From the IMG/VR virus record IMGVR_UViG_2703718829_000008, positions 1 through 43,438 of that record: a stretch of DNA of 43,438 nucleotides; one strand, given 5' to 3'. The notes beneath the pieces are model-generated. The model ran no database searches. It was given only the letters and a program-made list of their open reading frames with translations, and was not told the DNA's origin. Shown here one piece after another: positions 1-37,156 of this stretch. Origin of the DNA: a virus (lineage: Duplodnaviria > Heunggongvirae > Uroviricota > Caudoviricetes). Position numbers and translations under genes: made by a program. The first letter of the stretch is position 1, and every line of letters begins with the position of its first letter.

Positions 1-1083
1 ATGTCGTCTAATAATCGACTCCATTATCTTGATGGTATTCGTGGCTGGGCCGCAACTATTGTTGTCTTCGGGCACACCATGGGGGGCGTGATTGCAATTG
101 ACGCACCTAATTTTGTAAATCATCAATGGATGAGCTTTTTTACAAATGCTCATCTTGCTGTTTTGGTATTTTTTGTTTTATCAGGCTACGTCCTGAGCGT
201 TAGCCAAATCTACTCATCAAAACGTAATACTGCGGTATCCACCGTTGCAAGATTATTCAGATTGGCTCTTCCGATTCTGTTCGTAAGCCTTGTCGCATAT
301 ATCATGATGAGGTTAAACCTATTTTTCAATGTTCAAGCCGCTACTAATGACATATCGAAATCGTGGTTAGGGACATTTTTCAGGTTTGAGCCGTCACTAC
401 CTGGTGTATTTTCCTTTTCATTTTTCGATGTATTTTTCGCTTATGATACTCCGACATCATACAACTCTTCATTATGGACCATGCCTATAGAAATGGCTGG
501 GTCAATTCTAATTTATTCATACATAGCTATATTCAGAACTGAAAAATTCAACTGGATAATTTCTTCCATTTTAATAGTTTATTTCTATTTTTATAGCCCA
601 TTCATGTTCTGCTTTATGGTTGGGTATGTTCTGGCTGAACTGAAAAAAATTAACAACCTATACCTGAGTGGTAGAAATGAAATACCGTTGATATTTATTT
701 TCTTTGCCATGATCTATCTGGATACATACCATAGGCCGGTTGATGAGATTATTCAGGCGCTTGAGGCGGTAGTATTTGTTGTTGTAATATCTTACAGCAA
801 AACTTTATCATCGCTGTTCTCATCAAGAGCATCAAGATTTATGGGCAGGATTTCGTTTTCTCTATATCTAGTTCAGATACTGGTTATTTGCTCATGGTCT
901 TCGTACATGAAGATTTTACTATCAAACTCTGGTATTAATATAAATATTGCAGCCTCAATAAACCTCATATCATCCATGGCTTTGTGCATATTAACAGCAA
1001 GAGCCATGACTCCTATTGATGAATTTAGTGTTAAACACTCCAAAACCATTGCTTTTAAATTATTAAATTTATGCTCTAGGTAA
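1..1083 (+). CDS. Acyltransferase family 3 integral membrane protein (O-antigen acetylase-like lysogenic-conversion candidate)
   Basis: 360 aa, multi-pass hydrophobic, N-terminal 'LHYLDGIRGWAATIVVFGH' typical of acyltransferase_3; AT-rich; convergent with the tail fibre gene. Confidence 0.7.
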   Translation: MSSNNRLHYLDGIRGWAATIVVFGHTMGGVIAIDAPNFVNHQWMSFFTNAHLAVLVFFVLSGYVLSVSQIYSSKRNTAVSTVARLFRLALPILFVSLVAYIMMRLNLFFNVQAATNDISKSWLGTFFRFEPSLPGVFSFSFFDVFFAYDTPTSYNSSLWTMPIEMAGSILIYSYIAIFRTEKFNWIISSILIVYFYFYSPFMFCFMVGYVLAELKKINNLYLSGRNEIPLIFIFFAMIYLDTYHRPVDEIIQALEAVVFVVVISYSKTLSSLFSSRASRFMGRISFSLYLVQILVICSWSSYMKILLSNSGININIAASINLISSMALCILTARAMTPIDEFSVKHSKTIAFKLLNLCSR

Positions 1084-6759: not shown

Positions 6760-6946
6760 GGTAGGAATATCTTACCATCTTATTCCCATGCAGACATGGA
6801 ACGCCCTGCATAATTGGGACTTCATTAACAGTTAAATCCATGTACATAAAACTCTGTCGCTGAACAAGTTTTATATTACATTGCTGACCAGCCAGACTTA
6901 CCGAAATGGACTGAGATTTGCTGGGAAGAACAGATACTGTAATCAT
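6644..6946 (-). CDS. Small tail protein
   Basis: 100 aa ORF, 4-nt overlap with upstream gene. Confidence 0.3.
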   Translation of the reverse strand: MITVSVLPSKSQSISVSLAGQQCNIKLVQRQSFMYMDLTVNEVPIMQGVPCLHGNKMVRYSYLGFKGDLIFIDNDGESDPRWEGLGSRYLLYYIEENELV

Positions 6947-7758
6947 GTACTCGCCTTAACTATATTTTTTGCAATATCTGCCGCTTTTTTTGTTGCGCTG
7001 TTTGTGACTTCGAGTATTGGTTTGGATACCGTATCAAGAGCACTCTGAAATTCAGTCTTGATTGTGCCGGAGATTTTTCCAGTGATTTCGCCAACAGATG
7101 ACTTCAGTGATGACCATGATTTACTTAGCTCATCGACAGTAGATTCCCTGGCTCCGCCATTGGTTATTTGCGGATCAACTCCTACATCTCCCTGTGACTT
7201 ATTGTTATCCGTTGGCTTCTGTTCTGACTGAGGTCCAGAGAGGATAACCTCCATTTGCTGAATGACCTCCTGAAAATCAAGATAAACCGTCAGAAGAGTC
7301 ACCCCCTTTTGAGAGTTAACTTCGTAATAGTGGTCAACAAGGTCGAAACTCTCCAGAGTTTCCTTTGGCGTTTCAATATCGTATGTTTTTGCAGAGGACA
7401 GCATCGTTTTGATTGTGTTCAGCGTGCTGTTCTGGCTTGTGAATGTGAGATCGAAAATATTCGGGATGTTGCCGGAAAAACCAGTAAGACCATTTACGAT
7501 GATTGCGCATCTTACCCGGGCGGGTTCTTTAACTTTGTTGATGGACTGGTATTTCCCTTTCTCCACCGGAGCGTTTGTTATTTGCGCCCTTCCGCTTGGC
7601 TGTACGGATGCCATACCACTGAACTCAAGAGCAACCTCGCCAGTTTCCCTGTCACGAATCACATACTGAGGATGCAGAACGCTGTCGATGATCGAAAGCG
7701 GAGAGCCACCACCGATAGCATTGAATATGTCTGCTGTGTTTAAATCGATTATGCCCAT
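6943..7758 (-). CDS. Tail protein, first gene of the baseplate block
   Basis: 271 aa; ATG at 7758 immediately downstream of the bidirectional terminator. Confidence 0.3.
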   Translation of the reverse strand: MGIIDLNTADIFNAIGGGSPLSIIDSVLHPQYVIRDRETGEVALEFSGMASVQPSGRAQITNAPVEKGKYQSINKVKEPARVRCAIIVNGLTGFSGNIPNIFDLTFTSQNSTLNTIKTMLSSAKTYDIETPKETLESFDLVDHYYEVNSQKGVTLLTVYLDFQEVIQQMEVILSGPQSEQKPTDNNKSQGDVGVDPQITNGGARESTVDELSKSWSSLKSSVGEITGKISGTIKTEFQSALDTVSKPILEVTNSATKKAADIAKNIVKAST

Positions 7759-7818: not shown

Positions 7819-8631
7819 TTAGGCTGCGGTAGAAACATTAACTAGATTTCTCAATACTTCAACTCCTTTTGAGTTGTAGCGGAATGCTTCCACCTGTTTG
7901 CTGGAATGCGCCGATTTATCCAGGAAGAACTTCCCGTACTGCTCAGTTTTGAGGTTGTTTGCGTTAGCAATGCGACCAATCTTGTTGGCCGTTACTCCAA
8001 GCTGCTCTGCAACCTCCCCTGCTGAGTAGTAATGCTCTTCTATTGCCGGAAGGGGTATTGCATTAAAACCAACGATCGGGTTGATTATGCTTGCGGCCGC
8101 AGTCTGCTTTGCTTCCGGCGCAAGATTTGGCATCAAATCGAACAGATTGGTAACAGCTTCAACCGTCATTTTCAATGTTCGCGCTTGACGATACTCAACA
8201 AGTCCACTCGCTGATTTACCGCTTTTAATGTGCGCTTCTTGCATACTTTCAAGTTGGTCTACCAGTGAGCGGCGAACGGCTTTTGACTCGCGAGCGGCAA
8301 CTCGAAGGGCTTGCTTAATTGACATAACAACTTTTTCAGAACTTGTCTTGTTTGATTTTTGAACTACGAAAATTTCGTAGTGCTCACCTTCAAGTTCATC
8401 CTTAATGCGTGCAATAAAGTCGTTATTGCGGACTTCTTTTTCCCCGCACTGTCTACGAGCATGATTGACCATCTCTAACAGGTACTGGCTATCAATGGGT
8501 TTATCCGTGACAACGGATCCGATGTTTGCTACATTCTTAAAAGTCATTAGGCATTCCTTATGTGGTAGTAAGGGTGTGACATAGGCCGCCAGCAGCACAC
8601 TGGCGGTTTTTTTCACCGCCAGATGCGTCAT
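7819..8631 (-). CDS. Putative regulatory/antirepressor-associated protein
   Basis: 270 aa; start overlaps ant-like stop (TAATG); C-terminal HTH-like segment. Confidence 0.35.
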   Translation of the reverse strand: MTHLAVKKTASVLLAAYVTPLLPHKECLMTFKNVANIGSVVTDKPIDSQYLLEMVNHARRQCGEKEVRNNDFIARIKDELEGEHYEIFVVQKSNKTSSEKVVMSIKQALRVAARESKAVRRSLVDQLESMQEAHIKSGKSASGLVEYRQARTLKMTVEAVTNLFDLMPNLAPEAKQTAAASIINPIVGFNAIPLPAIEEHYYSAGEVAEQLGVTANKIGRIANANNLKTEQYGKFFLDKSAHSSKQVEAFRYNSKGVEVLRNLVNVSTAA

Positions 8632-9554
8632 TAATACAGATGAACAGAAGGCGGCAATTCTTTATTCTTAAGCCTTATCCATGCGGAAAGATTTGTTGGT
8701 CCGTCTGGCTCATTGATATCAACATCTCGTGTGTGGTTGATTAAAACGTCTCTCGCCGTTCCGATAACATACGAGAACTCATGGCCGTAGTCGTAGCACC
8801 TGCCAGAATAGTTTGATTGAATGTGCTTTAGCGCCGGATACAGTTCGCGGAATAATGCCTGTGAGCGGTTGGCATAATCCCATAACCATACAAGGCTGTT
8901 TGCTTCTTTTGCAGAAAGCTCGTTGGTTTTCTTCTCTTGTTTGCCGATGAACTCACCTTCAAGTGGAACTCGAGCTGCAAGTGACAGTGCTTCGGCAAAC
9001 TGCTCCTCACTGATTTCTTTGTATGAACACCCAAAATGAGATTTCAGTGACGACCACATGGTGATCATCGCCTTAGCCTGTTTTTCTTTTGGCAGAGACT
9101 GACCTCGACTCATGACGAGTTGTTTAATGGCTTCCTGCTGTTCAGTGGTGATTTTCCCCGGCAACGCCTTTTTAGCTTTGCGTGGATTAACCACATGGCC
9201 TTTAGTCCAGTACTCGTAGAGCACATCGTCACACTCTTCCTGATACTGGATTACCTTGTCGCGGATTTCAGGACGGACTTTGTTAGGACTGATGCTGTTC
9301 AACCAAGCTGCCAATTTTCGTAAAGCCATACAAATCATGGCTTGCACCCCACCGGCAGAAGGTATGGTGATTTCCACCATACCCTTCGAGAAGCGTTGAG
9401 AAATCTTCTTATGTTGAGATTTCCAATCTAGCCCCATTCCCTCAACGATAGGTTTCATTGGGGTGTACGGTTCGCCGTTGTGATTGACAACATAAAGCTC
9501 TGCGCCGTGGAATGGTACATTGATAGTTGATACCGCTGTTGCTATACTTTTCAT
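8631..9554 (-). CDS. Antirepressor-like protein (AntA-type N-terminal domain)
   Basis: 307 aa; lies downstream of an Arc-like gene and divergent from an Mnt-like gene, as in P22 immI. Confidence 0.55.
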   Translation of the reverse strand: MKSIATAVSTINVPFHGAELYVVNHNGEPYTPMKPIVEGMGLDWKSQHKKISQRFSKGMVEITIPSAGGVQAMICMALRKLAAWLNSISPNKVRPEIRDKVIQYQEECDDVLYEYWTKGHVVNPRKAKKALPGKITTEQQEAIKQLVMSRGQSLPKEKQAKAMITMWSSLKSHFGCSYKEISEEQFAEALSLAARVPLEGEFIGKQEKKTNELSAKEANSLVWLWDYANRSQALFRELYPALKHIQSNYSGRCYDYGHEFSYVIGTARDVLINHTRDVDINEPDGPTNLSAWIRLKNKELPPSVHLY

Positions 9555-9620: not shown

Positions 9621-9767
9621 TCATTCTGGACAAACAATCCCGTCCTTAGCTACCGACTCCTTAAGCCTCCTCAACACCTCATTGCTGAATGACCGATCAT
9701 CCTTTTTCGCTGACTGCTCCAAAGCTTTTTCGAGCCATTCTGGCATCCTTAACGTTTTTACTTTCAT
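9621..9767 (-). CDS. Arc-like ribbon-helix-helix repressor (48 aa, below track cutoff)
   Basis: Hand translation MKVKTLRMPEWLEKALEQSAKKDDRSFSNEVLRRLKESVAKDGIVCPE; SD AGGAGC 4 nt upstream of ATG. Confidence 0.5.
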   Translation of the reverse strand: MKVKTLRMPEWLEKALEQSAKKDDRSFSNEVLRRLKESVAKDGIVCPE

Positions 9768-9780
9768 TTTCGCTCCTTTG

Positions 9781-9836
9781 GTATGCGGTACGCATACATA
9801 GTATGTAGGTACGCATTGATAGTCAATAGATACCTA
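9781..9836. promoter_or_regulatory. Divergent promoter/operator region between arc-like and mnt-like genes
   Basis: Three palindromes: GTATGC-n5-GCATAC (9781-9797), TACATA-G-TATGTA (9795-9807), ATTGA-TAG-TCAAT (9815-9827). Confidence 0.4.
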
Positions 9837-9872
9837 CATATCCTGTGGTAAAAAATTATTCAGGATACGCTG

Positions 9873-10115
9873 ATGTCTGAACGCAGGTACAAGAACCCAC
9901 AAGTTAATCTTCGACTTCCTGTGGAGATAAAGGATCGCCTAACCGCGTTAGCTGAGGCGAATGGCAGATCTTTAAATGCAGAAATGGTTGCAGCTCTAAG
10001 TGCGTGGGCAGAAGAAAATAAACATGTTCACTCACTTAGCCTTTCTTCCTTAACCGAAAGATTAATAGCTCTTGAGAGAGAGGTTGCAGCCCTTAAAGAA
10101 GCAAACATCAAGTAA
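9873..10115 (+). CDS. Mnt/Arc-family ribbon-helix-helix repressor
   Basis: 80 aa; 'LTALAEANGRSLNAEMV' resembles P22 Mnt 'AEANGRSMNSEL'; divergent from arc/ant. Confidence 0.6.
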   Translation: MSERRYKNPQVNLRLPVEIKDRLTALAEANGRSLNAEMVAALSAWAEENKHVHSLSLSSLTERLIALEREVAALKEANIK

Positions 10116-10138
10116 GAAGACGATATTACGAGGTTGCT

Positions 10139-10606
10139 ATGGCATGTCTTAGCAAGGAAGAAAATGAAATCATCAATGTAGAATTTAAAAAAGCATCAGC
10201 AGATGAGTTGCTGATAATCAAGAAATTAATTATCGATGTTAAGAACCATAAAGGGCTATACCAAGATGTCGTAAAGAATGGCGCAGACCTCTACAGTTCA
10301 AAACTTGACATCATGAGAGAAACCGGCTTAGAGGAGATGACCTCCGGTATTCTTGCGAGAACGCTTTGGGGTATCACGCGACCAGAAAAAGAGAACACAA
10401 GACACCTAAGGGTCGGGATTAATGAAGCTGAGTGGTGCTTTGTGGAATGCATATGTAGACACCCCGCTCACCGCCTTCTTCATGGAAAGAAATACGCCAT
10501 CCGCAAAGGAATGAAGATTGGTTTTTTCAAACACATCCACCCTGGACAACTTGTAGGGTGTGGATGTTTATCTAGCCCCATAATTCCAGGATTAAAAAAC
10601 ACTTGA
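10139..10606 (+). CDS. Hypothetical protein co-transcribed with mnt-like repressor
   Basis: 155 aa, AT-rich, SD GAGG upstream, 24 bp after mnt-like stop. Confidence 0.4.
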   Translation: MACLSKEENEIINVEFKKASADELLIIKKLIIDVKNHKGLYQDVVKNGADLYSSKLDIMRETGLEEMTSGILARTLWGITRPEKENTRHLRVGINEAEWCFVECICRHPAHRLLHGKKYAIRKGMKIGFFKHIHPGQLVGCGCLSSPIIPGLKNT

Positions 10607-10965
10607 TAGCGGCCGCAAAGCAGATTGCCACGAAGTTGTTTGCAAAAATACTCCATGACAAGTTAGGACTTGAATAAGTGCTCATGCCGTGCTGATAGCT
10701 CTACTAGCAACTTCATCGCTTCTACCGCGTCTGCCGAGGTTGATTTAGGTGACGCAACAATGGACCTGAGTGTGCTCTATAAACTACACAGGGATAGAGA
10801 ATATGCCAAATTTAGCTTTATCACGGCGGCTAAGTCTGTTTCATCATGGTTTGCGAGTTTGTCTGCTTCTCCTGGGGTATACCCACTCGCAACCAATCGT
10901 GCGTGCATCATCTCTTTGTAAGAGTGTTCAATTGCTTTCATGATAATAACCTATTGGTAATAACT

Positions 10966-10995
10966 TAAAAAAACCCACCTGACGGTGGGTTTTAT
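10966..10995. terminator. Bidirectional rho-independent terminator
   Basis: A7-CCCACC-TGAC-GGTGGG-T tract between convergent genes. Confidence 0.55.
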
Positions 10996-11414
10996 TAGTG
11001 CTTGTATAGGTTGAACTCTCTATCAAGCCATATAACAAAAAATGTCGATCCAAGACGATAACCAACCATGGCTTTCAAATCATCAAATCTAAAAGCCAAG
11101 AAATGATCTACGTCTTCCGTTATATGACTGGGGATACCTGCTTTAATTGCACACCTTGCAATCTTCTCAAATCCAAGCTTATGCCTACCTTGCTGCTTAA
11201 TCTCTGCCCATGTTAGTTGACTTAATCTGTATAATTTATCAGCTAAGCCAGCTTTCTCATCTTTTTGGCATTTCGTTATGCAGTGAGAGCTTTGGATGTA
11301 ACAGAATGAAAATTTCGGTTTCTTTTGATCTGAATTCCCCCCTGACTGCGGCCCTAACTTTAACTTACCTGTAGATTCAGCAGGGGGGATAATCCTTTTA
11401 GATTTTCTTGCCAT
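10995..11414 (-). CDS. Putative toxin partner of Panacea-domain protein
   Basis: Start taken at MARKSKR, 4 nt after upstream stop; basic N-terminal region; C-terminus (VGYRLGSTFFVIWLDREFNLYKH) reminiscent of RelE/YoeB-type strands. Confidence 0.35.
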   Translation of the reverse strand: MARKSKRIIPPAESTGKLKLGPQSGGNSDQKKPKFSFCYIQSSHCITKCQKDEKAGLADKLYRLSQLTWAEIKQQGRHKLGFEKIARCAIKAGIPSHITEDVDHFLAFRFDDLKAMVGYRLGSTFFVIWLDREFNLYKH

Positions 11415-11418
11415 CTCG

Positions 11419-11868
11419 TTAGTTAATCCGAGTTGCAAAGTACTCTGCCATCTCCTTAGAGCTAATTTCAGAACCACCAACACCCTCAATATAGTTTGAT
11501 CTCCATGGTGACTCTTCGTGTGTCATGTTCCTCAGTTTCCAGGCAGAAAATTGCCCAAAAACATCCCAGACTTCTTCTAATAGCTCTAACTGTTCTTCGC
11601 TGAATTTTTCAGCATCAAAAGACTCTGGAGAAGGGATAGCGCCATTACCATATTGTTTATAACGGCGATAAAGCTCAGGAACAACAGGGCCATGCATCCA
11701 GGCTTCCATCTTATTCTGAAAAAGAGGCTCGCCAAGCAACGCCAATGAAAAACCCTGAGCATAGTAAACAAGCTTTTGTAATTTTAAATTAGAGATTGTG
11801 TCACCGCTATCCTCGTCACACCGCGACAGGAAGTAGTCGGCGACATCAAAACAAGTAAGCATGAACAC
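11419..11868 (-). CDS. Panacea-domain (DUF4065, SocA/GepA-like) protein, putative antitoxin
   Basis: 149 aa; 'NLKLQKLVYYAQGFSLALLGEPLF...EAWMHGPVVPELY' matches the DUF4065 pattern as I recall it. Confidence 0.6.
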   Translation of the reverse strand: MFMLTCFDVADYFLSRCDEDSGDTISNLKLQKLVYYAQGFSLALLGEPLFQNKMEAWMHGPVVPELYRRYKQYGNGAIPSPESFDAEKFSEEQLELLEEVWDVFGQFSAWKLRNMTHEESPWRSNYIEGVGGSEISSKEMAEYFATRIN

Positions 11869-12286: not shown

Positions 12287-12688
12287 ATGAACATCTTAAA
12301 ATCTACCATCTCAATCCTCTTTCTGCTAAGCCCTTCCGTGTGCTTCTCGTCTGGCGGCCTTACTTCACATCAAGTTTTAGTGGATTGCAACAGAGCTTCA
12401 TCGTCCTTGGTTAGCTCCTATGAAAAGGACGTTCCATTGCAGGAGTCCAAAAGGATGGACCTCATACAGACAATATCCCGCGTATGCCAAGGTGCATACC
12501 AAAACGCTTACGATGGCATGCAGTATGAGGACATTGAAAGAGAGGTTTTATCAAGCGCCAAAAAACAAAAGAAAAATCTTCAAGGAGAAAGCAAAAAAAA
12601 TACCGAGAACAGAACCGGGCTAGTTCTTTCCGCCATTCAGGTAGGGTATTACATATACCATAATGGCGGTCTTGATAATAAAAAATAA
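12287..12688 (+). CDS. Secreted hypothetical protein (signal peptide)
   Basis: 133 aa; hydrophobic N-terminus ISILFLLSPSVCFSSGG; AT-rich; preceded by a 418-bp AT-rich intergenic region. Confidence 0.4.
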   Translation: MNILKSTISILFLLSPSVCFSSGGLTSHQVLVDCNRASSSLVSSYEKDVPLQESKRMDLIQTISRVCQGAYQNAYDGMQYEDIEREVLSSAKKQKKNLQGESKKNTENRTGLVLSAIQVGYYIYHNGGLDNKK

Positions 12689-22184: not shown

Positions 22185-23003
22185 TCATTTTCTATCTATC
22201 CCAGGGATAACAGGAGACCACGTACAACGGCAGTTGATAGCCTCTCCCGGCAGCACCCATTCACCATCGAGATACAGCCCTTTATCGAGGTCGAACTCTT
22301 TACCGTCAGCTTTCACATGGGATGGTCTTGGCTGCTTCCCGGCGTGTGAGTGACGCCAGATTCCTTTGGTGATTCCTAACTTCTTCTGCCGTTCAGACTG
22401 AATTACCGCTGTAGCTTTGTTGTTCTGATCGCGTGCAATCGTCTCAGCGCGTCTGCGTGTAATGCCATATCGCTTAACCAGTTCATCAGTGAGATAGCCA
22501 AGGTCACGACCACGGCTGACAGACTGCATGACTATCGTCTCAACCTGTGTGTGATAGTGTTCAGGTATGGATTTAATCAGGTTGACGTTCTCGTTAACGA
22601 CAGCCTGCATCACGTTCTTAAGCTCGTCATTCATTGTGAACTTAACGGTAAATCCGCCAGCCTTTAACGCTGAGTGTAACGAAACGTCGGTGTTGCGCAG
22701 TGTCTTATCAACAAAGCGATCAGCCAGTTTCTTAGCCAGTTCATTGAATTTATGCTCCCACTGCTTGCCTAGTCTGGACAATCTGCGCTTTAACTCATTC
22801 GCGGGACTGGAATCCATCGCCATGTTGTTTTTGTATGCGCCCTCAAGCCAGTATCGGTATGACTTATCCATCTCCCTAACCAGCTTGAGAAGCTCAGAGC
22901 GATACCACTCATGAACTCCGGCGTTGGCTCTGACTGGACGAAGGATTTTCCGGTTCTTCGAATCCTTCTTCGATGGACTCGTTTTCGTACTCTTCTTCGT
23001 CAT
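22185..23003 (-). CDS. Phage Mu gpF-like head morphogenesis protein
   Basis: 272 aa; C-terminal '[10 protein letters not shown]' and '[17 protein letters not shown]' typical of Mu F-like minor head proteins. Confidence 0.55.
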
Positions 23004-24459
23004 ATTCAGATTCCATCATGTGGTATGGGCTGGCCTTATCCGACTGGCGCATGCTTCTTATTGCATCAAGATCGAACACGCCAGCTTCGGCATAGTTCTT
23101 GTCAGCCTCAGACTGATGTTTCATGATCTCGGCTTTCTCTGCTTCTGTAAGCTCATACAGAGGCAGGAACTCAAAATCAATGTCAGGGTCAATCTCGCCA
23201 AATTCGTTTAACTGGATAACATCCAGTACTGTTTTCAGTGGTACTCTGAACAGATTCTCCTGCATGGCGTGGATTGAGTCATAGAAGACGCGGATTTCTC
23301 CATCAGATGACGCGTTTAGCCCGTTAGGAGTGATGCCAAGGAGCTTAACCAGGGGAATGCTTGATACCGATGCCATTTGTTCCTGTGCTTGAGCCTGAAG
23401 AGCATCGACTCCGGACAGACTTGTCACAAACTGGAAGAATTCTTCCGCATCCTTATCAATAAGGAACATTCCGCGATTGTCGCGAACCTTATTGAAGAGC
23501 TCGGCACGCATAAACAGGTTTGGGTCTGCAATTCCAGACAAGGCATTCTGCATGTTCGTCTTCAGCCCGTAGACCACAAACGAATGAACCAGATCGCTAA
23601 CGCTGTCACGTGTTCTCAGCCAGTTTTGCACATATGGCTCTGCCATCTGACTCAGCGACAAGCCGCCGAAGTTGTACGCCGCTTTGAGAATGTCTGGCAC
23701 CTGGCGAGAAATCATTGTCAACATGCGACTGGCGTGAACCGTGCGCCCCATGACATACCATTCAGATGGATTGAAGAAGTCAGGGCTTAGAGGATTGTCA
23801 GCGTTATACACGCCCGGGTAAGTCCACATAGCCTCGACAACGCGGAAACCATTCAGGCTTCCTTTGGTAATCTTGCGCGGACTGATATCGAGCTTCTTAT
23901 CCAGTTCGTCGGGAACCAGCCAGGCTGAGTTACCGCTTGGCGTCTTCACGTCGATATAAATCTGTCCGCGTCCGAAGTAGCCGTCATGTTCCGCCGCCTC
24001 GCGAAACTTCTCTCGCACTCTGAAACGCTTTAATGCGTCGTCAAGCTGGCGAATCTTATCGGCCTTGTCGTCACCATCGTCTTTACCTACATGCTTCAGC
24101 TCAATCCATTTTCGCGTCATCTCTTCTGCTATCGTGCCAGTAATCTTGCGATACTCCGGCAACTGAGCAAGTTGAGACAGATATGGGTAGCCAGGAAATC
24201 CACCGTAGCCATATGAGGTGATGTTTGCTGAGTTAAGGTAACTGTACGGCGTGGAGTCCATCGCCAGAGCTGACTCCCCAATATGTTCAGGAATAACGCC
24301 TGGCGGGGGTACGTATCTCTCAATTCTACGCAATGCCTCGCCTTCATTTTTAATTCGCTCCTGTTCGTTAATAATCGCAAGAACATTCGCCAGAGACATT
24401 GGCTGTTTCGCCTCTTCTTTCTGAGGCTCAGATTTTTTCTTTCTCAAAAAATTAAACAC
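22909..24459 (-). CDS. Portal protein
   Basis: 516 aa directly downstream of terminase large subunit, acidic C-terminus. Confidence 0.6.
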
Positions 24460-35739: not shown

Positions 35740-36036
35740 TCAGAACTCTATCTGGATTTGTTCAGAACGCTCGGTTGCCGCCGGGCGTTTTTTCTTTGTG
35801 ATTCCATCAAGCGCATACTTAAAAGCCCTGCTAATCGGACTGATGTCTGATGCCATTCCAAAAGCACACAGGACCGAAGCAATAAATCTCCAGTCCGTTC
35901 TGCTTATCTTCGATTCATGACAGCCAATCATCTTTGCCAGACCGCGCTGGGTAAGCGTTGACAGGTTGATAAGTAAATCTGTTTCTGCGCGATCAACGTC
36001 GCGCTGTGATAGTTTGCTGTAACTTGTTTGTTCCAT
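35740..36036 (-). CDS. cII: CII-like transcriptional activator
   Basis: 98 aa; C-terminus KKKRPAATERSEQIQIEF matches lambda CII; HTH present. Confidence 0.8.
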   Translation of the reverse strand: MEQTSYSKLSQRDVDRAETDLLINLSTLTQRGLAKMIGCHESKISRTDWRFIASVLCAFGMASDISPISRAFKYALDGITKKKRPAATERSEQIQIEF

Positions 36037-36448: not shown

Positions 36449-37156
36449 ATGGTTCAGAATGAAAAAGTGCGCAAAGAATTCGCCCAGCGGCTAGCGCAAG
36501 CCTGTAAAGAAGCTGGTCTTGATGAACATGGTAGGGGGATGGCCATAGCCCGTGCCCTTTCTCTTTCGTCCAAAGGCGTTAGCAAATGGTTTAATGCTGA
36601 GTCTTTACCGCGTCAGGAAAAAATGAATGCGCTTGCGAAATTTCTAAACGTTGATGTTGTTTGGCTTCAGCACGGCACTTCGTTAAATGGAGCGAATGAT
36701 GAAGATACTCTTTCATTTGTTGGCAAATTAAAAAAAGGGTTAGTGCGCGTGGTTGGTGAGGCAATTCTTGGTGTTGATGGTGCCATCGAGATGACCGAAG
36801 AGCGCGATGGGTGGCTCAAAATTTATAGCGATGATCCAGATGCCTTTGGTCTTCGTGTGAAAGGAGACAGCATGTGGCCCAGAATAAAATCAGGAGAATA
36901 TGTACTCATTGAGCCTAACACCAAAGTATTCCCGGGTGATGAGGTGTTTGTCAGAACCGTTGAAGGACACAACATGATTAAGGTTCTTGGCTATGACAGA
37001 GATGGAGAATACCAGTTTACAAGCATCAACCAGGACCACAGACCAATAACGTTGCCTTATCATCAAGTAGCAAAGGTGGAGTATGTGGCTGGTATTCTGA
37101 AGCAGTCCCGCCATCTGGATGACATCGAGGCAAGGGAGTGGCTGAGAGATTCCTGA
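36449..37156 (+). CDS. cI: CI-type repressor (HTH + S24 LexA-like autopeptidase domain)
   Basis: 235 aa; N-terminal HTH, C-terminal 'RVKGDSMWPRIKSGEYVLIEP' S24 peptidase motif. Confidence 0.85.
   Translation: MVQNEKVRKEFAQRLAQACKEAGLDEHGRGMAIARALSLSSKGVSKWFNAESLPRQEKMNALAKFLNVDVVWLQHGTSLNGANDEDTLSFVGKLKKGLVRVVGEAILGVDGAIEMTEERDGWLKIYSDDPDAFGLRVKGDSMWPRIKSGEYVLIEPNTKVFPGDEVFVRTVEGHNMIKVLGYDRDGEYQFTSINQDHRPITLPYHQVAKVEYVAGILKQSRHLDDIEAREWLRDS

Follow-up and report, generated by a model that had tools for sequence, protein, structure and literature searches.

We analysed a 43,438-nt stretch of DNA from a virus of the Caudoviricetes (hereafter the window), and in particular a 155-aa ORF on its + strand (10139..10606), which runs from an ATG at 10139 to a TGA at 10604-10606. 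A Shine-Dalgarno sequence, GAGG (10130..10133, + strand), can be read directly from the sequence 5 nt ahead of the ATG. The ORF lies behind a gene for a mnt-like ribbon-helix-helix (RHH) repressor (9873..10115, + strand; Pfam Arc, E 1.8e-10), the first gene of the operon, and the mnt DNA of the window shares 81 % identity with the mnt/ant region of phage CUS-3. A first-pass annotation of this DNA had placed the ORF 24 bp after the mnt stop with a good Shine-Dalgarno sequence, and had described it as AT-rich. The ribosome-binding site is indeed present, but the spacing from the mnt stop to the ATG is 23 nt, and although the GC content of the gene is lower than that of the window, the difference is modest (41.9 % vs 45.5 %).

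On the - strand, divergent from the mnt-like gene, lie an arc-like gene (9621..9767; Pfam Arc, E 1.6e-5), a P22-type antirepressor gene, ant (8631..9554; P22_AR_N, E 5.7e-45; P22_AR_C, E 1.8e-29), and a second antirepressor-like gene (7819..8631; phrog_1726 anti-repressor, E 4e-96). The spacer between arc and mnt holds a promoter-like site upstream of mnt, TTGATA-17-TATCCT (9816..9844, + strand), identified by consensus match only, which overlaps a divergent promoter-like site for arc-ant, TTGACT-17-TACTAT (9798..9826, - strand), found in a promoter scan. The same spacer carries operator-like palindromes (9781..9840), one at 9781-9797 (GTATGCG-GTA-CGCATAC) and one at 9802-9840 with 18-nt arms. 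Thus, with its divergent arc and ant genes and the promoters and palindromes of the arc-mnt spacer, the region constitutes a complete immI-type module.

The site at 9816..9844 (+ strand) is the sole candidate promoter for mnt and the 155-aa gene, and neither a promoter-like nor a terminator-like site was found between the two genes. The first terminator-like structure downstream of the 155-aa gene is a GC-rich hairpin with flanking A and T runs (10970..10993), which was detected on the - strand, reads aaaaaaacccacctgacggtgggtttta on the + strand, and would probably act bidirectionally. Co-transcription of mnt and the 155-aa gene is supported, at the level of sequence, by the lack of an intervening promoter or terminator, by the recurrence of the 23-nt junction in related loci, and by overlaps of the mnt stop with the start of the following gene in distant homologues. 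Further downstream lies a gene for a 133-aa signal-peptide protein (12287..12688, + strand), which has an N-terminal hydrophobic leader in its translation and recurs in related loci; in the window, a Panacea toxin-antitoxin pair is inserted between the 155-aa gene and this gene. Rfam searches of the window and three loci gave nothing at the gathering score, and a permissive run gave sub-threshold chance matches only.

The existence of a gene behind the Mnt-like gene, as originally proposed, held up well. In a collection of 5.8 billion proteins, 27 clusters of homologues were found, 138-164 aa in length plus fragments, which came from E. coli, Salmonella, Klebsiella, Enterobacter, Yersinia, Rouxiella and unnamed metagenome reads. 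The named clusters are all "hypothetical" and the rest are nameless, and none carries a Pfam domain. Identity of family members to the window protein ranges from 31 to 97 %, and eight residues are invariant throughout the family (I27, G39, L72, C106, H111, G124, C141 and C143). Furthermore, dN/dS was 0.11-0.35 (Nei-Gojobori; ten ORF pairs with estimable dS, in some of which dS exceeded 1). These data show that the ORF is a genuine gene under purifying selection. One intact copy of the family is unannotated in RefSeq. The encoded protein is basic and soluble: a Kyte-Doolittle scan revealed no hydrophobic or transmembrane segment (maximal 19-residue mean of 0.82), and the family is uniformly basic, with a median pI of 9.5, a net charge of +5 to +14 and the positive charge concentrated in the C-terminal 60 residues.

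MuF proteins are among the commonest head proteins of phages, and to our knowledge neither has a structure been solved nor a biochemical role been defined for them. The 155-aa protein had been thought to belong to no recognisable family, and searches with curated models agree with that impression, as Pfam gave no match at E <= 1 and NCBIfam and PADLOC gave none. This view proved wrong once other methods were used: the protein matches the PHROGs profile phrog_324, "head morphogenesis" (E 1.1e-8), and a tblastn search against 50,697 phage genomes returned only head-morphogenesis or SPP1-gp7-family genes. The same phage encodes a canonical MuF minor head protein (22185..23003, - strand; Pfam Phage_Mu_F, E 3.8e-15), whose gene overlaps the end of the portal gene (22909..24459, - strand; Pfam Phage_portal_3, E 2.3e-91), and BLASTP aligned aa 45-152 of the 155-aa protein with aa 162-269 of this MuF, its paralogue (24 % identity, E 8e-9). 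An exhaustive search of 1.84 billion representatives with the family profile recovered 162 proteins at E <= 1e-3; PF04233 was detected in 68 of the 124 non-family matches that were scanned, and no other family recurs among them. Moreover, hhalign of the family against 27 canonical MuFs gave a probability of 99.5 % (E 2.7e-23) over 117 columns, and this profile-profile comparison places aa 38-155 (10250..10603, + strand) against MuF columns 158-277.

Structure prediction pointed in the same direction. With an alignment of 148 sequences, AlphaFold produced a model with a pLDDT of 95.5 and a pTM of 0.89, which consists of five helices followed by a small beta unit; this run replaced an earlier AF2 run with 12 close homologues, for which the pLDDT was 64.8. 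A Foldseek search of BFVD with the model gave 14 matches at E <= 1e-3 (TMq 0.43-0.50), of which six are nameless and all those bearing names are minor capsid, head morphogenesis or MuF-like proteins. Fold searches of the PDB returned only weak, generic helical matches, and yielded no solved MuF structure for comparison. Altogether, profile homology and the predicted fold show the 155-aa protein to be a stand-alone, diverged MuF/SPP1-gp7 domain, whose counterpart by alignment is the C-terminal half (about aa 136-272) of the MuF encoded by the same phage, without the N-terminal ~130 aa of the latter. By homology and fold it belongs to the MuF superfamily, and it fails the curated model, the canonical motifs and the genomic context of that superfamily.

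To describe how the family departs from canonical MuFs, column statistics were taken from the 148-sequence alignment, which includes 50 canonical MuFs. Residues G48, D50, R88, G93, W99, H111, G116, K117, G124, P135, G136, C141 and C143 form a core common to both, and the conserved pattern W..(x)..H...GK......G.......PG...C-x-C is present in the family. Five polar positions that are at least 88 % conserved in the 50 canonical MuFs are changed: D75, Q76 and K79 of the "RDQxNK" helix, R108, three residues ahead of the invariant His, and H101, two residues after the conserved Trp. The family instead has I/T75, L76, W77, I79, H108 and F/Y101, exchanging polar motifs for hydrophobic residues.

The protein also contains a putative CHCC metal site (10454..10567, + strand), made up of C106 (10454-10456), H111 (10469-10471), C141 (10559-10561) and C143 (10565-10567). 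All four residues are invariant in 24 of 24 family members, and H111, C141 and C143 are invariant across the 148 MuF-like proteins. C106, in contrast, is part of an insertion that 96 % of canonical MuFs do not have, and is found in 62 % of other short MuF-like proteins. A Cys/His-containing segment, ECICRHPAHRLLHG, had been singled out by the first-pass annotation; it maps to aa 103-116, of which only C106 and H111 do not vary across the family. From the pattern of conservation we infer that C106, H111, C141 and C143 bind zinc, and that the site of canonical MuFs may have been kept with one ligand swapped, from HHCC to CHCC.

The genomic context of the family was inspected in about 19 distinct loci. 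Nearly all are E217/Pam3-like temperate myovirus prophages, and one, in Rouxiella, is a siphovirus-like element; a scan of genome contigs returned the Rouxiella locus only. In the window, the 155-aa gene lies 12 kb from the portal gene, on the opposite strand, between ant/arc/mnt and the tape-measure gene, and the related loci (about 19) show the same context for the family gene. If there are tail or baseplate genes on its flanks, it sits on the strand opposite to them. A signal-peptide or lipoprotein gene is often found downstream of it, and the product of 12287..12688 has phmmer matches in six of the loci (L001, L008, L009, L014, L015 and L018).

In at least 12 loci the family gene directly follows a mnt-type RHH gene, which in turn faces an arc/antirepressor pair. 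In the E. coli group the junction is 23 nt, as it is in the window, L001 and L008, and L009 has the same gene coordinates; the junction in the Rouxiella locus (L006) is 207 nt. In other loci the stop codon of mnt overlaps the start of the family gene, as TAATG (L010, L012 and L020; the coordinates in L021 are identical) or as ATGA (L011 and L017), and at most of these junctions an AAGG(A/G) ribosome-binding site lies within the 3' end of mnt. The mnt genes of these loci are very diverged (phmmer E 1e-7 to 1e-47). The arrangement as second gene of a mnt operon is conserved across very diverged immI modules. The proposed tie to mnt thus applies to most loci, but not to six distinct ones from which mnt is absent (L003, L004, L013, L015, L018 and L019). 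In three of these (L003, L004 and L019) a pRha or KilA-N antirepressor gene is transcribed divergently from the family gene, and in the other three (L013, L015 and L018) neither mnt nor an antirepressor was detected. No convincing promoter-like site was found on the + strand of the loci that lack mnt.

We also tracked the phage lineage itself, by means of the baseplate gene at 6943..7758. Of 5426 complete E. coli genomes, 21 carry the lineage (28 places), whereas the ORF for the 155-aa protein is present in 5 genomes; the idea that it is a core gene of the phage was rejected on these counts (5 E. coli genomes vs 28 lineage places). In lineage members that lack it, the slot is filled by other genes, among them those for a P63C protein and for a 152-aa protein that is secreted, or an Arc-family gene that is not followed by the 155-aa gene. 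We considered whether the 152-aa ORFs in the slot might be diverged homologues of the 155-aa protein, and rejected this, as they encode secreted proteins with no relationship to it. In IMG/VR, 15 loci of the family stand against at least 556 for MuF of the phage's own type. No family member was found by tblastn in deposited phage genomes (50,697) or in plasmids, and megablast of the region and of the structural module against deposited phages returned no close phage. Conversely, mnt occurs without the 155-aa gene in L025 and in about 140 E. coli genomes, and a canonical MuF coexists with the family gene in the window, in L001 and on the contig common to L012 and L065. Thus, the patchy presence of the gene, the other genes found in its slot and the coexisting canonical MuF identify it as optional accessory cargo, in a slot within the tail-gene cluster and on the strand opposite the tail genes, and not as the head protein of the phage. 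The first-pass annotation had counted clear homology to a structural function against its own proposal of a superinfection-exclusion or host-modifying role. Such homology does exist, in the form of MuF, but the gene is not the structural copy, as the canonical MuF gene adjoins the portal gene.

MuF domains are packaged in the head, bind the portal and DNA, and support the start of infection (PMC6316719, PMC5512222), and they act as modules that target injected effectors to the head (PMC5512222, PMC5576092). The gp7 protein of SPP1, described as DNA-binding, attaches strongly to the portal and enters the procapsid in a few copies, and only about 25 % of SPP1 virions that lack it are infectious (PMC6316719). 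The 155-aa protein is similar to MuF, SPP1 gp7 and Mu gpF (PF04233, TIGR01641; "short MuF", PMC5576092) in its domain, core residues, predicted fold and basicity. Unlike canonical MuFs, it is only about 155 aa long, scores below the Pfam and NCBIfam thresholds, has the extra invariant Cys106, and is devoid of the RDQxNK helix, R108 and H101. Moreover, whereas 85-87 % of known muf genes adjoin a portal or terminase gene (PMC5576092), this one lies away from both and is coupled to mnt.

Two further comparisons are instructive. In P22, sieA, orf59a and mnt are adjacent and expressed from the prophage, and the region is inserted among late genes (PMC10883804). The 155-aa gene resembles sieA (with orf59a) in being an accessory gene beside mnt, in an immI region among late genes, and to this extent the parallel with sieA that was drawn at the outset is a good one. 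The parallel does not extend to mechanism: SieA is an inner-membrane protein, whereas the 155-aa protein has no sequence similarity to it and is MuF-like and cytoplasmic, and a SieA-like membrane mechanism was rejected because the protein has no hydrophobic segment. The second comparison is with Tab (PMC10884400) and Tai (PMC11364771), which are constitutive proteins of prophages or PICIs that block the tail assembly of invaders, Tab by acting on the tape measure protein (PMC10884400). The likeness here would be one of logic, namely a protein of the resident prophage that hits a structural step of the invader. Tab and Tai, however, act on tails, while the 155-aa protein derives from a head- and portal-associated protein, and no anti-Tab-like partner was identified for it.

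Other short MuF-like proteins without an evident place in head modules were also recovered (the P0021-P0046 group, 140-215 aa). Like the 155-aa protein they are short, and the group as a whole does not have the RDQxNK motif, but they are only 20-31 % identical to it, differ in their N-termini, come from metagenomes with unknown hosts, and none was seen with mnt. None of the four with usable context is portal-adjacent; one each follows an integrase, an OB-fold protein and a Trypsin_2 protein. The group gave no match in PADLOC. These observations hint at a wider class of orphan short MuF-like proteins outside head modules. A viral-locus search for other short MuF-like proteins returned a canonical, portal-adjacent MuF.

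What might such a protein do for the phage? Since a MuF core sits in the mnt operon, has lost the N-terminal half and the polar motifs, and is carried by some members of the lineage alongside a normal MuF, we tentatively favour, with the reserve due to a reading that we would not back at even chances, that it is a lysogen-expressed mimic of MuF that interferes with related superinfecting phages. The protein would be made together with Mnt, and hence in the lysogen. It would occupy the portal and/or the DNA end but would not carry out the function of MuF there, and MuF itself is a further possible partner for which it would compete. Such a mimic would make related superinfecting phages less productive or less infectious and, by analogy, would form the head-side counterpart of Tab and Tai. 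The mimic finds support in the soluble and basic nature of the protein, with its charge in the C-terminal 60 aa, given that SPP1 gp7 binds DNA and portal (PMC6316719), and in the precedent of Tab and Tai as assembly-blocking prophage proteins (PMC10884400, PMC11364771). The more specific history, in which the phage duplicated and truncated its own MuF and brought the copy under Mnt, to act as a dominant-negative decoy against head completion or DNA delivery in related superinfecting phages, is in our judgement more doubtful still. The main weakness of a MuF mimic is that the lost RDQxNK helix and R108 could be the very surface that binds the partner, which would rule out a portal decoy. Furthermore, a decoy could harm assembly of its own prophage after induction, and no counter-measure was identified; in the six loci without mnt, expression in the lysogen is only assumed; and PADLOC v2 (2023) holds no related defence model. 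Overall, a role in superinfection interference is a plausible proposal.

A second, accessory internal head or pilot protein of the phage itself, packaged via the portal and ejected with the DNA, for example to protect the DNA end, would fit the retained MuF fold and basic C-terminal part, the location of the gene within a late-gene region, and the reported packaging of MuF domains in the head, their binding to portal and DNA and their aid to the start of infection (PMC6316719, PMC5512222). However, all structural genes lie on the other strand, and the gene is coupled to mnt, which encodes the lysogeny repressor; it is absent from most lineage members, which assemble with the canonical MuF, and its product has no effector domain and has lost the canonical polar motifs. 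We consider this role unlikely. The protein might instead be a zinc-dependent immI factor that binds nucleic acid or Ant and either acts with Mnt to silence the antirepressor or neutralises the antirepressor of superinfecting phages. In favour of this are the 12 or more loci, with immI modules that have diverged greatly, in which its gene is coupled to mnt. Its basic nature and probable zinc site agree with such a factor, as does its place in the position of Mnt, divergent from pRha or KilA-N antirepressors, in L003, L004 and L019. But L013, L015 and L018 have no detected antirepressor or mnt, many prophages carry mnt without the 155-aa gene, and no DNA-binding regulator fold was found, the PDB matches being weak and generically helical, so that we regard a regulatory role as rather improbable.

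An RHH gene followed by a gene for a protein of ~150 aa, with overlapping stop and start codons, is also the typical layout of a type II toxin-antitoxin system, and a genuine pair of this kind (Panacea) lies next door. If the mnt-like protein were the antitoxin and the 155-aa protein the toxin, however, an RHH gene should accompany it, and none is adjacent in L003, L004, L013, L015, L018 and L019. The RHH gene is moreover a true Mnt, which faces arc-ant across an operator-bearing divergent promoter and is widespread without the 155-aa gene, and no toxin family was matched in Pfam, NCBIfam, PADLOC or PHROGs. This reading, a very improbable one, was rejected on the strength of the loci in which no RHH gene accompanies the 155-aa gene. 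Hardly credible, finally, is that the gene is a functionless remnant of a duplicated MuF gene, left to decay. The restriction to the C-terminal half of MuF and the loss of canonical motifs would be expected of such a remnant, but the family keeps intact frames of 138-164 aa across six genera with eight invariant residues, its dN/dS stays at 0.11-0.35 even at saturating dS, its fold is predicted with confidence, and its ribosome-binding site and coupling to mnt are conserved.

The 155-aa gene is an orphan, truncated MuF paralogue in a lysogeny operon, a placement that is unexpected for a very common and poorly understood head-protein domain. Its assignment corrects the annotation of 27 clusters that are at present "hypothetical" or nameless, to MuF-like. 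Moreover, the protein would offer a convenient handle for structural and binding studies, being a naturally trimmed MuF core of 155 aa that is modelled with confidence and has a probable zinc site. If interference by a MuF mimic proves to be its function, defence by assembly interference, so far known for tails (Tab and Tai), would extend to the portal and head; it would be the first superinfection defence that works on the head side by structural mimicry, with phages reusing parts of their own virions as weapons. The 155-aa protein may then represent a broader class, so far unrecognised, of orphan short MuF-like proteins that occupy accessory positions in mobile elements.

The window is a hybrid prophage, in which a lambdoid early part, with a cI-like S24/HTH repressor gene (36449..37156) and cII (35740..36036), is joined to an E217/Pam3-like myovirus late part. 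One end of the window is taken up by an Acyl_transf_3 (O-antigen acetylase-like) gene (1..1083, + strand), and close relatives are inserted at bioA-ybhB or at an intS site adjoining purK. No close relative of the window was found among deposited phage genomes; the best, Vibrio phage IKEMa6-1, showed 70% identity across 24% of the structural region.

On the 3' side of the MuF-like gene, window 10995..11868 (- strand) probably encodes a Panacea-type toxin-antitoxin pair. The SocA/Panacea antitoxin gene (11419..11868, -; Pfam E = 1.9e-24) is accompanied by a partner gene (10995..11489, -) matching phrog_8366 (E = 1e-65), whose product also gave a weak NsnC match in PADLOC (E = 1.2e-5). Because the phrog_8366 alignment begins only at residue 26, the true start of the partner gene is probably an ATG near 11414. 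The pair, after which a strong hairpin terminator follows (10970-10993), sits as an insertion between the MuF-like gene and a secreted-protein gene, and it is missing from L001, L008 and L009, homologue-carrying loci otherwise syntenic with the window. Between this hairpin and the MuF-like gene's 3' end lies a predicted 54-aa ORF (10777..10941, -), convergent to that gene, for which no family was found (weak phrog_27371 match, E = 0.009). In E. coli TW10590 (NZ_CP035850.1; L002 8341..8808) the MuF-like gene is intact, encodes 155 aa and is missing from the RefSeq annotation; the feature annotated beside it, on the other strand, is a pseudogene fragment of an antirepressor N-terminal domain.

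The slot immediately preceding the tape-measure gene carries, on the other strand, genes for small proteins that have a signal peptide or resemble lipoproteins and that belong to no fewer than two unrelated families (133 aa and 152-176 aa). Such genes are found in the window (12287..12688, +) and in five further loci (L001 13458..13859, L015 5536..5937, L003 6541..7005, L024 10083..10541 and L025 12449..12907), and are spread across the prophage lineage whether or not the MuF-like gene is present. No family match was found for these proteins; they are candidates for exclusion or conversion functions acting at the envelope.

In two mnt-less loci, the antirepressor leaders upstream of the pRha gene (Salmonella; L003 5790..5990, -) and the KilA-N gene (Klebsiella; L004 5780..5990, -) share a nearly identical ~70-nt block, though the antirepressor genes differ. 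Both leaders also contain terminator-like hairpins (e.g., L004 5961-5940) at the expected arc/mnt place. The shared block and hairpins suggest that these antirepressors are under RNA-based control; Rfam gave no family match for the leaders, only sub-threshold hits. Within the conserved 5' portion of the MuF-like coding sequence, a minus-strand sigma-70-like site occurs in the window (10214..10242) and in both L003 and L004 (6076..6104), with up to 10/12 matches among the three loci. It is directed toward the antirepressor side and could be the antirepressor promoter in mnt-less loci, or it could be a by-product of AT-rich conserved codons in the MuF-like gene.

Other metagenomic short MuF-like proteins (154-185 aa; L033 3020..3484, L027 2331..2870, L028 1283..1822 and L030 1177..1734) likewise lack an adjacent portal gene. 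One such gene overlaps the end of a phage integrase gene, with recJ alongside, and another comes after an OB-fold (tRNA_anti-like) protein of 352-361 aa in several contigs. These proteins may belong to a wider group of orphan MuF cores that occupy accessory sites in mobile elements.
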